Below, one piece after another: positions 1 through 34,032 of a DNA stretch of 34,032 nucleotides. A program made the position numbers and the translations under genes. This DNA is from a virus: IMG/VR virus record IMGVR_UViG_3300027742_000026. One strand, given 5' to 3'. The notes under the pieces are model-generated. The model had not been told where the DNA came from and did no database searches. It was given only the letters and a program-made list of their open reading frames with translations. Position 1 is the first letter of the stretch, and the number at the start of each line of letters is the position of its first letter.

Positions 1-99
1 CACATCCAAACATTAAACCAGAGCCAAAAAAGAGAAAGCCCAGAAAAGTCACAAGAAAGAGAAAGAGAGTATCTCAAAAGAAAATGGACAACAAAGACC
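1..99. repeat. Terminal 99-bp block identical to 33934-34032 (circular-contig overlap or short direct terminal repeat)
   Basis: Direct comparison: the first 99 nt (cacatccaaacattaaacc...caacaaagacc) recur exactly as the last 99 nt of the window. Confidence 0.95.
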
Positions 100-209
100 A
101 ATTGATTGAGTTTATCAAATGGGTGTATGAGTTGGATGATGAGGAGATATGTTCTGATGGTTGGAAATCCAAAATAATCACAAAGGTACAATCACTGTTC
201 ACAAAATAA
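3..209 (+). CDS. Hypothetical protein, C-terminal part of the junction-spanning gene that starts at 33638
   Basis: The frame is open from the window start to TAA at 207-209. It continues the ORF running off the 3' end once the 99-bp overlap is collapsed (about 168 aa in total). It contains a basic KKRKPRKVTRKRKR stretch. Confidence 0.6.
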   Translation, partial: HPNIKPEPKKRKPRKVTRKRKRVSQKKMDNKDQLIEFIKWVYELDDEEICSDGWKSKIITKVQSLFTK

Positions 210-216
210 CAATCGT

Positions 217-846
217 ATGATAGATTGTAATGTGGCAGGAATAGAAATAACAAAAAAAATGAGTGTGAAAGCAAAAGAGTGGACAGACATCAAAGCACCC
301 AGAATCACACAGCATTTTACTCAGAAAAGAATCAGCAAGAAAGAAAGTATTTTCATGGCATCACTAGGGGAGATTGCATTTTGTGAGATGATGGATATTG
401 ATTGGGAGAGCAGAAAGATAGAGAACAAACCAGACATTGATGCAATCACCAACAAAGGAAAGATAATGGAAATCAAAACATATTCAGTCCCCAGTCCCTA
501 TTTTGAGAAACTGATTAGGAATGAATTGGATAATGATGACCTATATGGCAGATGTTTGTTTTTAGAGAAACAGGCACATGAGTTGGGAATATGTGACTAT
601 GTATTTTGGGGAGTGTTTCAAGACCATGAGTATAATGTTTGGTATCCAATAGGATACATGTCATCTCATGATATATTGGAAAGATATACAGCCCAGACAC
701 ATGTTTGTGATGGGAGAGTAAAACTCCCACAGATTGCATTTACAGTGGGAAATCAAGATGTTAGGAAACTCAGAAAATGGTACAATATAGCAGATGAGGA
801 TATCAACATACAGCAAGGGCAAAGCATGGAAAAGGGGCAAGTGTGA
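217..846 (+). CDS. Putative PD-(D/E)xK-fold nuclease
   Basis: 209-aa ORF. Motif order GEIAF ... PDIDAI ... MEIKT fits the E / D / ExK arrangement of restriction-endonuclease-like nucleases. An alternative ATG at 259 has an A-rich leader. Confidence 0.45.
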   Translation: MIDCNVAGIEITKKMSVKAKEWTDIKAPRITQHFTQKRISKKESIFMASLGEIAFCEMMDIDWESRKIENKPDIDAITNKGKIMEIKTYSVPSPYFEKLIRNELDNDDLYGRCLFLEKQAHELGICDYVFWGVFQDHEYNVWYPIGYMSSHDILERYTAQTHVCDGRVKLPQIAFTVGNQDVRKLRKWYNIADEDINIQQGQSMEKGQV

Positions 847-1099
847 GGTGTGTGACAGAATGAGATGGTTGTGTCAGCACCATATAGATGGCAGGAAAAA
901 TACAGGGGAGGTGATTTGGGTTTGTAGTAATGGGAAAACAAATGTATTATACCCAGATGCATGTCATCAGAAAATACATAATCCAACAGCATTTGGATTG
1001 CCAAGCACTTGGGCATATGACAATGGTTATCTCAGGAGATTAGATAGTAAATACAGACCAAAGAAAAAGGGAAACAAAAAATGGCAAATCAAAAAGTGA
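794..1099 (+). CDS. HNH endonuclease
   Basis: Sequence CEVCDR...CQHHIDGRK...VIWVC...CHQKIH gives the two Cys pairs and the HH/H of an HNH (beta-beta-alpha-Me) finger. It overlaps the upstream ORF by 53 nt in the +1 frame. Confidence 0.8.
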   Translation: MRISTYSKGKAWKRGKCEVCDRMRWLCQHHIDGRKNTGEVIWVCSNGKTNVLYPDACHQKIHNPTAFGLPSTWAYDNGYLRRLDSKYRPKKKGNKKWQIKK

Positions 1100-2040
1100 A
1101 AACATTTGGGATATATCATGAGTGGATACCAAGAGTTGGGGGCATTGAATCAGCAGTGTTTAATTTGGGCAAAGCAATGGACAAGGTAGGATACAAAGTC
1201 ACAGTGTATTTTGCAGGTTGTGAGAGTTGGGAAAGTTTATTCAAGTATGCACAGATTGGTGATGTGGTGAAATTACTCCCAGACCATAAAGAGGGTCAAT
1301 TCAAAGAGGATGTCCTATTGATAGCATCCAATCATTATATGCCCAAGACTATCAAGGCAGGCAGATATTTGCAGTGGGTTCATAGTGACTATGACAAATA
1401 CAAGTTAGATTTGAGAAACAAGGGTCAGGTTGAGTACATAGCAGTGAGCAAACATGCAAAAAAGGTTATTGAGAGGAGAGAGAAAATCAAGGCAAAGGTG
1501 ATATACAATTTGATTGATGATGATTTTGGTACAGATGACAGAGAGGTTTTGAGATTTGTGACAAACAGTAGAGTCAGCCCAGAAAAGGGATTTGACAGGA
1601 TGATATTATTTGCAGAGGCACTCAATGATGCAAATGTGAGATATGTTTGGACAGTGTATGGGGACAACAGTGTTTCTCCCAAGTATTTTGAGGATTGGCA
1701 GAGAAAGTTCAGACATCTCCCACAGGTTCATTTTGTAGGATACAAACCAGACATCACAGTGGGATTGGAGAATGCCACATACAGTTGTCTATTTTCAAAC
1801 TTTGAGGGTTGTCCATATTCTGTATTGGAGTCACTCAAATTAGGAGTACCCTGTTTGGTGACAGATTGGTTGGGTGTGGATGAGTTGATTGATAATGGGG
1901 TCAATGGGTATATATTGCCAATGGACATGAAATTGTCCAAGTACAAAATCAAAAAGATACTCAAAGAGATACCAAAGTTTGAATACAAACCATTGTCCAC
2001 AGTGAAAGATTGGGTTAAAATTATTGAAAAAAAGAAATGA
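1081..2040 (+). CDS. Glycosyltransferase, GT-B fold family 1 (GT4-like)
   Basis: 319 aa. The C-terminal signature is SPEKGFDRMI...FSNFEGCPYSVLESLKLGVPCLVTD...LIDNGVNGYILP (E-x7-E motif). The stop overlaps the next start (ATGA). Confidence 0.85.
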   Translation: MANQKVKTFGIYHEWIPRVGGIESAVFNLGKAMDKVGYKVTVYFAGCESWESLFKYAQIGDVVKLLPDHKEGQFKEDVLLIASNHYMPKTIKAGRYLQWVHSDYDKYKLDLRNKGQVEYIAVSKHAKKVIERREKIKAKVIYNLIDDDFGTDDREVLRFVTNSRVSPEKGFDRMILFAEALNDANVRYVWTVYGDNSVSPKYFEDWQRKFRHLPQVHFVGYKPDITVGLENATYSCLFSNFEGCPYSVLESLKLGVPCLVTDWLGVDELIDNGVNGYILPMDMKLSKYKIKKILKEIPKFEYKPLSTVKDWVKIIEKKK

Positions 2041-32693: not shown

Positions 32694-33103
32694 AAACTAT
32701 TCAAACAGAAATGAAAAACTACAACAGGAGAGCAGACAACAGTGTCAGTTTCAGATTGGACTCCCTGTTGGAATTATCAAGCAAAGAGATTGGAGAGATT
32801 GATGCATACAGAGGATGTGTTGCCATTATTGTTTTGACAGACAGTATTGTTGGAAATGTTGTGGATTTTGATATGAACACAATCCTCAAAAACCTCCCAG
32901 AGAATGATGCCATCTCAAATTACAAATCACCCTCCAAAAGGTTCAGAGATGTATTGTACAGACTATGTGAGCAGGAGTTGAAAAGACCTCCATCCAAAGA
33001 GGAGTTTGTTGATTACTATCAGAAAGAGTACACTAAAATCACAGAGCACTACAAATCAAAGTTTGAGGATGATATTGGAGAGGGTATAGTTGACACAATG
33101 TAA
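32690..33103 (+). CDS. Hypothetical early protein
   Basis: The track start at 32675 is TTG. The first ATG, at 32690, overlaps the upstream stop (ATGA). The last codons (IVDTM*) carry the -35 of P5. Confidence 0.5.
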   Translation: MKTIQTEMKNYNRRADNSVSFRLDSLLELSSKEIGEIDAYRGCVAIIVLTDSIVGNVVDFDMNTILKNLPENDAISNYKSPSKRFRDVLYRLCEQELKRPPSKEEFVDYYQKEYTKITEHYKSKFEDDIGEGIVDTM

Positions 33104-33119
33104 ACAGAGGGTGTATAAT
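33090..33119 (+). promoter_or_regulatory. Sigma70-type promoter P5 (TTGACA-18-TATAAT)
   Basis: The hexamers lie at 33090-33095 and 33114-33119. The unit is near-identical to P3. Confidence 0.7.
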
Positions 33120-33149
33120 GTAATGTGTTAATTTGAAATTGTGCAAGAA

Positions 33150-33620
33150 ATGAAACTATCACAAGCAAGAAAATTAGCAGGTGAATTATTACAGACCCAC
33201 AACCCAGATTGTGGTTTTGAGTTTTGTCATGGATACTCACGATTGGGGTATTACAGTCCCAGAAAAAACAAGATACACATTTCAATAGAGGTTGTTGAGT
33301 ATAACAAGGAGTGGTTAGTCAGGGATATTTTACTCCATGAGATAGCACATTCACTCACCAGAGGTCACAAGCATGACAATGTATTCAGGGCAAAGTGCAG
33401 AGAGTTAGGTTGCAACCCATTATCAAGAACAAGTGAGATTGTAAAATTACCTCCCAAGAGATACAGATATGAATGTCCCAATTGTGGATTGGTGGTGTAT
33501 AGGATGAGCAAGAATTACAGATTAGCATGTTCAAGGTGTTGCAGGTTGTATGCCAGAAACCAATATTCAAGAAAGTACACATTTAATATTTCAGAGAATG
33601 AAAATTACAAAAGGATTTAA
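33150..33620 (+). CDS. SprT-like zinc metalloprotease with C-terminal zinc ribbon
   Basis: The track start at 33141 is GTG and the first ATG is at 33150. LLHEIAHSLTRGHKHDNVFRAKCRELG gives HExxH plus the downstream His. CPNCG...CSRCC forms the zinc ribbon. Confidence 0.75.
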   Translation: MKLSQARKLAGELLQTHNPDCGFEFCHGYSRLGYYSPRKNKIHISIEVVEYNKEWLVRDILLHEIAHSLTRGHKHDNVFRAKCRELGCNPLSRTSEIVKLPPKRYRYECPNCGLVVYRMSKNYRLACSRCCRLYARNQYSRKYTFNISENENYKRI

Positions 33621-33637
33621 TTTTTTAATATATTTTT

Positions 33638-34032
33638 TATGACACAATTCATAGAACCAAGAAACATGACAGAGGAGTTGAGACTGTATGTGTTTGATAT
33701 TTTGAAAGTGATTGAGAAATACAAGGCAAGGCATTCAAGATATCCAAATACAAAAGACATATACCCAGAGGTTATGAAAAGGAATGGCAGGACAGATGCA
33801 AGTGTATATTCAGCAGTCATTAGGATGAGAAAAGAATTGGGAATGTTAGAGGACATAGGAGAGTATGCCCAGAGTTTGGCAATCTCATTGAGGGGATACA
33901 GGTTCATGGAACAGATGCAACGGATGCAGGAGACACATCCAAACATTAAACCAGAGCCAAAAAAGAGAAAGCCCAGAAAAGTCACAAGAAAGAGAAAGAG
34001 AGTATCTCAAAAGAAAATGGACAACAAAGACC
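33638..34032 (+). CDS. Hypothetical protein, N-terminal part of the junction-spanning gene (continues at window positions 100-209)
   Basis: The ATG at 33638 opens a frame that stays open to the window end. The first roughly 90 aa look like a small helical, possibly winged-helix domain (LRLYVFDILKVIEKYKARHSRYPNTKDIYPEVMKRNG). The track omits it because there is no stop inside the window. Confidence 0.6.
33934..34032. repeat. Terminal 99-bp block identical to 1-99
   Basis: Exact match to the first 99 nt. Confidence 0.95.

Follow-up and report, generated by a model that had tools for sequence, protein, structure and literature searches.

The viral record IMGVR_UViG_3300027742_000026, analysed here as a window comprising the whole stretch of 34,032 nucleotides (positions count from its first letter), raises the question of why a phage should have lost almost all of its CpG dinucleotides. 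The window spans the whole genome of an uncultured tailed phage, siphovirus-like in type, in which 46 CGs are observed against 1,161 expected (odds ratio, rho, 0.040; strand-symmetrised 0.037), an exact count that agrees with the 45-50 CGs and observed/expected ratio of 0.04-0.05 obtained by hand in an earlier note on this DNA. We consider it probable that this loss belongs to an extreme avoidance of many different target sites driven by host nucleases, with restriction-modification (R-M) and related systems as the likely agent. Very strong and very broad selection would have removed the short words read by such nucleases, a form of passive anti-restriction, and the near-absence of CpG would be the cumulative end state reached when too many CG-containing recognition words are forbidden.

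The CG deficit differs neither among codon positions nor between coding and non-coding DNA, with 6 observed against 161 expected at codon positions 1-2, 13 against 440 at positions 2-3, 19 against 483 at positions 3-1 and 8 against 128 in non-coding DNA, and is thus independent of reading frame. This is in agreement with the earlier note, which had held that codon choice is not the cause and that arginine is nearly always encoded by AGA or AGG (424 of 430 codons); the codons GCG and CCG are absent. Islands of recent acquisition were considered and rejected, since the depletion is even along the genome, kilobase by kilobase. The + strand is composed of 36.8% A, 14.1% C, 24.2% G and 24.9% T. On this background GC dinucleotides are, as had been described, abundant (883 copies; rho 0.76, only mildly low) and CA and TG over-represented (rho 1.95 and 1.35), 72% of the window's C residues preceding A. 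The further claim that the effect is specific to CpG is not borne out: CT has a rho of 0.44 on the + strand against 1.02 for its complement AG, TA stands at 0.61 and dozens of words of four to six nucleotides are wholly absent. Nor do most coding CGs lie at codon junctions, as had been thought, the proportion being half (19 of 38, counted as NNC followed by GNN), and the supposed gathering of CGs in structured non-coding patches dissolves into 8 of 46 CGs in 14% of the sequence, with no enrichment and no matches in Rfam and tRNA scans of the window.

At the level of words, 35 of the 256 tetranucleotides (14%) are absent, including GAAG (270 expected), TAAG (278), CTTA (109), GATC (106), AGCT (106), CTTC (42) and GGCC (40). 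Zero copies were likewise found of TCGA, ACGT, CCGG, GCGC, CGCG, TTTAAA, ATTAAT, RAATTY, CTRYAG and CCWWGG and of the gapped words CCNGG, GGNCC, GCNGC, CCNNGG and GGNNCC, while GCN7GC has 1 copy against 40 expected. An unbiased dyad scan, covering every dinucleotide pair (2+2) at gaps of 0-10 nt, returned these last six as its only gapped dyads; all are palindromic and they are exactly the specificities of ScrFI, Sau96I, Fnu4HI, BsaJI, NlaIV and MwoI respectively. A REBASE dictionary taken from Biopython holds 617 distinct sites, of which 476 are testable (at least 5 expected sites). The counts of these sites are bimodal, a site being either missing altogether or present at roughly 0.6-3.7 times expectation, and 142 of the 476 specificities (30%) have no site at all. 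The corresponding figure is 5-14% in relatives from the same family, 4% in T7, 6% in the Helicobacter phage KHP30 and 0% in the mononucleotide-shuffled window (0-1 specificities against 142). Avoidance of short sites thus goes far beyond composition, the avoided words match real R-M specificities, degenerate and gapped palindromes among them, and the window displays the most extreme motif avoidance among the genomes examined. Judged from the sequence, bimodal zeros of this kind at REBASE sites are the mark left by selection against sites that nucleases recognise.

Within this scheme the forbidden CG-containing words would take in every palindromic NCGN, together with CGCG, CCG and the majority of CGNN and NNCG words, leaving few CG contexts tolerated. 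As synonymous changes can remove any CG, selection could bring the count down to about 4% of that expected. At least 20 non-CG specificities are avoided and a literal CG is present in 27% of REBASE specificities, so that a comparable share of the CG-containing ones would be expected to be avoided too. The idea that CG-containing palindromes explain the avoidance, raised in the earlier note, falls short, as palindromic NCGN accounts for about one quarter of the expected CGs and the non-palindromic contexts are missing too.

Relatives of the phage provide a means of separating these effects. A megablast of 24 kb of the window against INPHARED gave no matches, the capsid and lysin proteins gave no useful phage matches and the best cultured matches to the terminase, from Bacteroides and Parabacteroides phages, have an identity of only 36%. 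Relatives in IMG/VR, JGI and ENA, with terminase or capsid identities of 51-76% and some on contigs labelled as activated-sludge metagenome, also have a C-poor, purine-rich coding strand and show a CpG rho of 0.23-0.97, with CT at approximately 1.0-1.4 and TA at approximately 0.8-1.1. In the window itself the GC skew (+0.14 to +0.35) and AT skew (+0.11 to +0.26) are constant and all 35 curated open reading frames (ORFs; 217-33620, covering 86% of the window) lie on the + strand. The purine-rich strand with its co-oriented genes is a trait of the family and, as had been proposed, distinct from the CpG purge, for all relatives share the skew without the loss of CpG. Closer relatives were drawn from Logan assemblies. 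In L054, L055 and L056 (TerL 84%, three runs) and in L058 (TerL 87%) CpG stands at 0.03-0.05 and the forbidden words largely overlap those of the window. L057 and L063 (TerL 83%; two runs overlapping at 99.97%) retain CpG at 0.56-0.59, and CGN codons make up 25% of their arginine codons, yet they display every other bias, with CT at 0.33-0.42, CA at 1.76-1.78, TG at 1.25-1.28, TA at 0.46-0.51 and one-strand losses like those of the window. The CpG purge is therefore separable from the other biases and lineage-specific. Whether close relatives have ordinary CpG, a point on which the earlier note had laid weight, thus receives a divided answer: one sister lineage and all distant relatives do, and the extreme value recurs in two further diverged lineages, which together indicate that the depletion is real and confined to certain lineages rather than an artefact.

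The sister that retains CpG is instructive in a second respect. In L057/L063 the words ACGT, CCGG, GCGC, CGCG and ACGC/GCGT have zero copies and GACG/CGTC is near zero, with the other NCGN classes normal, and CG-containing words therefore act as individual on/off targets. The same behaviour is seen for other sites (given as observed/expected where two numbers are quoted). GANTC is at 0/66 in L054 and 108/106 in the window; CTNAG is at 0/38 in L057 and 51/66 in L054; RAATTY is at 0/68 in the window and absent from L054, against 21/20 in L057; GAGAC is absent from L054 and L057, against 55/48 in the window; CCAGA has 83 copies in the window, a 4-fold enrichment, and none in L057; and GCNNGC shows an on/off difference among the three. 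More distant relatives avoid other sets again (CATG, GTAC). The forbidden sets turn over quickly, a pattern to be expected of lineages that each follow the R-M repertoire of the particular strain they infect.

These comparisons bear on a rival explanation, in which a single CpG-directed agent acts on top of ordinary restriction avoidance in the hosts of the window, L054 and L058 lineages. Such an agent might be a CpG methyltransferase like M.SssI or M.MpeI, whose mark is attacked by type IV nucleases of neighbouring strains, or an undescribed low-specificity nuclease or sensor centred on CG. It would account for the shift of CpG as one block between sisters that share nearly all biases, for the three lineages approximately 25% apart in nucleotide sequence that all lie at 0.03-0.05, and for the state of ACGA, which, although the most tolerated context, is depleted about 5-fold relative to the sister lineage. 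The contexts in which CGs survive tell a different story. ACGA makes up 28 of the 46 CGs and palindromic NCGN none, against 11.5 expected under a model in which CGs arise from CA or TG parents (G = 88, P < 5e-5). The tolerated contexts are few, specific and differ between lineages, being CGAG, CGAT and CGGA in the window (CGAG 17, CGAA 4) and CGAA and CGAT in L054 (CGAA 17, CGAG 0), a result that a context-blind agent would not yield, and CG alone is recognised by no REBASE-listed enzyme. We therefore think a single CpG-directed agent unlikely; the lineage-specific contexts, as read in these genomes, point to a number of agents, each with its own context, more than to a single CpG sensor blind to context or to uniform deamination. 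It was also considered whether residual CGs are forced by other forbidden words, and this was discarded as 37 of the 38 coding CGs have a clean CG-free synonymous alternative. Only 1 CG is common to the window and L054 over a 15.5 kb alignment at 75% identity, and since hardly any CG is conserved between lineages the surviving ones are transient.

A mutational origin has also to be weighed, in which methylation of CpG by the host is followed by deamination of 5-methylcytosine, converting CG to TG or CA as in vertebrates and Mycoplasma penetrans. CpG under-representation tied to the methyltransferase M.MpeI has been documented in the latter bacterium (Wojciechowski et al., 2013, as cited in PMC11282364) and, as far as that citation goes, the case resembles the window in being a prokaryotic system with depleted CpG and an excess of TG and CA. 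Where the CpG-retaining sister has a CG, the aligned window mostly has TG (39-50) or CA (27-52). Comparison with the same sister nevertheless removes the CA/TG excess as a footprint of deamination, because L057/L063 has a like excess, and CG loss is thus not its source. The depletion in the window differs further from the M.MpeI case, as far as it is described there, in being structured by context, with a CA/TG excess independent of it. By our own estimate, an observed/expected ratio of 0.04 at equilibrium would need CG to decay at tens of times the reverse rate. The surviving contexts are far from those predicted from CA or TG parents, and the parallel shift of NCT codons to NCA needs changes from T to A rather than deamination of C. 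We regard mutational decay as highly improbable. Among the causes proposed in the earlier note, selection by host nucleases is thus the one that the evidence favours, and methylation with deamination is poorly supported.

Purine loading correlates with high growth temperature in bacteria, and a physical or compositional cause (DNA flexibility of a thermophile type, codon or composition bias) may be envisaged, as may an artefact of synthetic or misassembled sequence. CpG depletion also correlates with high growth temperature in bacteria (PMC11282364). Against a physical cause stand the sister phage of the same composition that keeps its CpG, the independence of the depletion from codon position and the exact zeros at specific gapped palindromes, which flexibility cannot yield. 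Against an artefact, the TerL protein is found in ENA, JGI and Logan sources and diverged CpG-poor relatives are present in four other runs. Explanations of this group are barely credible in our judgement. Eukaryote-style or synthetic design was discarded for its own reasons: AATAAA and ATTAAA are present, GGTGAG is normal, the avoidance is strand-specific, a feature that no designer would build in, and diverged natural relatives exist.

The strength of the avoidance is further evident from its effect on the proteome. In approximately 9,800 codons (35 ORFs) the dipeptides Ala-Ala (23.8 expected), Gly-Pro (19.4), Pro-Gly (19.4), Phe-Pro (10.0), Trp-Pro (4.2) and Pro-Trp (4.2) do not occur. When the correspondence between dipeptides and words is worked out from the genetic code, Ala-Ala is absent because every encoding contains GCNGC, Gly-Pro because every encoding contains GGNCC and Pro-Gly because every encoding contains CCNGG; Trp-Pro, Pro-Trp and Phe-Pro are lost because their encodings contain GGCC, CCNNGG and TTCC respectively, the last being a word lost from one strand. 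Many members of the family (loci L001, L006, L016, L018, L026, L054 and L057) also lack Ala-Ala, Gly-Pro and Pro-Gly together with GCNGC, GGNCC and CCNGG. Deep avoidance is a habit of the whole family, of which the window is the extreme, and avoidance at the DNA level edits protein sequence across the family, selection overriding the protein sequence. Nuclease pressure can in this way reach through the genetic code to constrain proteins.

A second group of losses affects one strand only. On the + strand there are no copies of CTGG, GCTG, GGCT, GCTC, CTCTG or CTGCTG, against 128, 82, 55, 49, 139 and 25 copies of their respective reverse complements CCAG, CAGC, AGCC, GAGC, CAGAG and CAGCAG. TTCC and GCCT have 2 copies each (GGAA 236, AGGC 105), GGTAA has 0 (TTACC 20) and GAACT 0 (AGTTC 28). 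GGTGG has 50 copies and CCACC none. GCT occurs 19 times, at 0.07 of expectation, and every copy is TGCT followed by A or T. A small T-rich ORF at 32079-32249, of approximately 52 aa, hydrophobic and probably a membrane protein, clusters otherwise rare words (GCTT twice, TTCC, CCTT); it is called in the ENA contig and lies below the ORF length cut-off used here. In L054 and L057 most of the asymmetries between motifs and their complements are found again, and one-strand losses of 4-5-mers (CTGG, GCCT, GAACT) are kept in all three diverged lineages.

This second layer could reflect clearance of asymmetric words from one strand, which would shield the genome from type III and type ISP enzymes, requiring two inverted sites, or from nickases; alternatively it may reflect selection on the transcript. 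Phage T7, in work by Meisel, Krüger and colleagues, reportedly keeps EcoP15I (type III) sites in one orientation only. One-orientation type III examples are cited as previously known specific examples in a survey of restriction-site avoidance in phages (Rusinov et al., 2018; PMC6286503). Like T7 the window has all its genes on one strand, and the motifs of collision-dependent enzymes are unidirectional (CAGCAG 25:0, CAGAG 139:0, AGACC 45:4, TNAGCC 6:0). It is unlike T7 in that many words are concerned, down to 4-mers, and in that some losses hit the orientation favoured by composition. For the pyrimidine-rich words CTGG, GCTG and TTCC the orientation lost is the minority one, whereas for GGTAA (67 expected against 15 for TTACC), ATAAAA (0 observed; 57 expected against 12) and GAACT it is the one expected to be commoner. 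The one-strand layer is unusual, and these last losses do not fit simple type III logic; because GGTAA and ATAAAA are lost in the commoner orientation, an agent that reads one strand (RNA or single-stranded DNA), or a nickase, is possible for this layer.

As every gene lies on the + strand, selection might also act through the transcript, or through an intermediate of single-stranded DNA, and be the cause of the whole. Sequence-specific endoribonucleases, with toxin-antitoxin or abortive-infection mRNA interferases of the MazF/MqsR kind as candidates, would then purge GCU, CUGG, UUCC, GGUAA and possibly CG words. GCU is the cleavage motif of MqsR, and the depletion of GCT is in keeping with this, as are the many words gone from the + strand with abundant complements, the loss of Phe-Pro through TTCC and the losses of GGTAA, ATAAAA and GAACT, which fit an agent reading one strand better than a type III enzyme. 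The palindromic and gapped-palindromic losses are, however, the mark of double-stranded DNA, CG is self-complementary so that its loss carries no strand information, and the well-known interferase motifs ACA and UAC are not avoided; nor does the clade contain any opposite-strand gene to serve as a control. As a general explanation this appears to us quite improbable.

Several of these observations also weigh against multi-target avoidance of host nuclease sites as the explanation. The reduction of all ten NCGN classes would need approximately 13 or more CG specificities, above the REBASE proportion, and the best-tolerated context, ACGA/TCGT, still lies some 5-fold below the CpG-retaining sister, a hint of extra pressure on CG itself. 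A purely cumulative form of the explanation is at odds with the lack of any sister lineage seen with CpG between approximately 0.04 and 0.56. The window lacks GAAG/CTTC and TAAG/CTTA as bare 4-mers, and neither is the site of any single listed enzyme. The loss of majority orientations (GGTAA 0/67 expected; ATAAAA 0/57) is a misfit with the logic of type III evasion, and strand-asymmetric avoidance is rare in phages and not systematic according to the published survey (PMC6286503). It may be conceived instead that the CpG purge and the one-strand losses together reveal, rather than summed classical R-M, an immunity of the host directed at motifs that are very short or specific to one strand, and that this phage clade has answered with a ‘word-sparse’ genome from which even pairs of amino acids are barred. 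The candidates would be a CpG-directed nuclease, restriction dependent on CpG methylation, nickases that cut frequently or RNases that attack phage transcripts at specific sequences. The purine loading and single gene orientation seen across the family would then also be adaptive, serving to hold asymmetric motifs in one direction. We hold this to be rather doubtful, and retain avoidance of many nuclease sites as the probable explanation.

The kind of phenomenon is known already. Staphylococcus phage K lacks GATC and Bacillus phages lack GGCC, and these are classic cases of site avoidance. In the survey of Rusinov et al., complete or near-complete elimination of sites was found in about one-tenth of viral genomes, avoidance was stronger in non-temperate double-stranded DNA phages and no systematic strand-asymmetric avoidance was seen (PMC6286503). 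The window resembles such cases in that short palindromic type II sites are fully gone beyond composition with no need of a methyltransferase. It differs in extent, for known avoidance concerns one to a few sites, whereas the window has cleared at least 20 independent non-CG specificities and nearly all CG-containing words, with a dinucleotide at 0.04, six dipeptides lost and 35 of 256 tetranucleotides absent. In the literature searched no precedent was found for the breadth, the reach into the proteome, the outcome at the level of a dinucleotide or the strand-specific component. A further likeness is to the CpG suppression of vertebrate-infecting viruses, in which sensing by ZAP or TLR9, both vertebrate proteins, is implicated: CpG and UpA/TpA are low and CpA/UpG high on the coding strand. 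The zeros at restriction sites set the window apart from these, and its gene content (terminase, SPP1-type portal, Mu F-like protein, putative tape-measure protein and M23 lysin, with three perfect sigma-70 promoters) is not that of a virus with a vertebrate host.

The proteins of the phage were searched for other means of escaping restriction. No typical DNA methyltransferase was found among the window proteins searched, which makes avoidance the available strategy, and no integrase or DNA polymerase was found among them; the lack of an integrase fits the stronger avoidance reported for non-temperate phages (PMC6286503). The protein at 2037-2987 was considered as a phage-encoded DNA methyltransferase and rejected, having only generic class-I S-adenosylmethionine (SAM) methyltransferase matches and PDB matches resembling ToxA, a small-molecule enzyme; its translation, read by eye, contains no DNA-methyltransferase motifs of either the C5 or the amino type (no xPPY, no PCQ/ENV). 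Together with the GT1-family glycosyltransferase it forms a pair kept directly upstream of the terminase genes across the clade (L054 7197-9099; L057 2041-3952). The extra small ORFs of L057 and L054 carry no methyltransferase domain. With respect to base modification, no nucleotide-modifying synthase was found among the window proteins searched, the GT1 glycosyltransferase and the generic SAM methyltransferase being all that was seen. In one more distant relative, L064 (positions 1-1530; ENA ERZ2648042 NODE_5229; 75% capsid identity), a TAGT and radical-SAM protein adjoins the terminase, which suggests, from its domains, DNA hypermodification. L064 avoids fewer sites (GCNGC 9 copies, GCN7GC 29), and hypermodification may be an alternative anti-restriction strategy inside the same family.

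Sister lineages that differ cleanly in CpG and in single sites constitute a natural experiment for dating the purges and finding their cause. The list of forbidden words reads out the defence repertoire of an uncultured host population, and a genome so poor in restriction targets is a natural template for the design of phages or vectors of broad host range. Should the CpG or strand-specific component prove not to be classical R-M, an undescribed type of immunity would be indicated.

The features of the genome are collected in Table 1. The terminal repeat stems from overlap in the assembly, the genome being circular or permuted and approximately 33.9 kb long, and the same genome is present in permuted order as the ENA contig ERZ778604 NODE_1102 (33,988 nt, coverage 73). 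In the Mu F-like protein a segment containing WWHFG is present twice; shorter homologues of the protein are found in L054 (1,032 aa) and L057/L063 (>1,400 aa).

Table 1. Features of the window, with positions counted from its first letter
Feature	Position	Strand	Basis or remark
Terminal direct repeat, 99 nt	1-99, identical to 33934-34032		Sequence identity
GT1-family glycosyltransferase	1081-2040	+	Domain matches
ParB-like (DGHHR) and class-I SAM methyltransferase	2037-2987	+	Domain matches
Terminase large subunit (TerL)	4016-5230	+	Pfam Terminase_3/3C; used to trace relatives
SPP1-type portal protein	5275-6591	+	PF05133
Mu F-like head-morphogenesis protein, 1,836 aa, fused to ADP-ribosyltransferase toxin-like domain	6608-12118	+	PF04233, PF03496
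Putative major capsid protein	13048-13890	+	No Pfam match; position after DUF4355 scaffold-like gene; used to trace relatives
Putative tape-measure protein	16652-18994	+	Gene order alone; TMP_3 in the counterpart from L066, a distant relative
Tail and fibre genes	19367-26046	+	Collar domain in 21592-23730
M23 peptidase, SH3 and coiled-coil lysin	26065-27069	+	Domain matches
Early or replication region	28920-33119	+	Promoters, annealase, Ros/MucR-like gene, SprT-like gene
Sigma-70 promoters, perfect consensus TTGACA-17/18-TATAAT	28920-28948, 29576-29604, 33090-33119	+	Sequence
Rad52-like annealase	30983-31477	+	Domain match
Ros/MucR-like protein	32250-32693	+	Domain match
SprT-like protein	33141-33620	+	Domain match

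The M23 lysin indicates that the host has peptidoglycan. In the search for that host, a scan of genome collections gave a single match, to a contig of a metagenome-assembled genome labelled ‘uncultured bacterium’, scans of viral contigs with the lysin and fibre proteins found nothing close, and for a capsid homologue whose contig was listed as up to 199 kb long, the search yielded only a phage contig of 33 kb. A motif, (A)TAATTT(N0-2)G, is locked in position 19-24 nt upstream of 17 of the 35 start codons (examples at 5252, 6589, 13028, 15177, 24661, 26044 and 27168). It often overlaps the TAA stop of the preceding gene, the canonical Shine-Dalgarno sequence being weak or absent, and it may be a signal for translation initiation or re-initiation. 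A Bacteroidota host is a possibility suggested by the weak Shine-Dalgarno sequence and this motif, but the three perfect TTGACA/TATAAT promoters contradict it. The hexamer TTGACA is over-represented approximately 6-fold genome-wide, with 57 copies against 9.7 expected.

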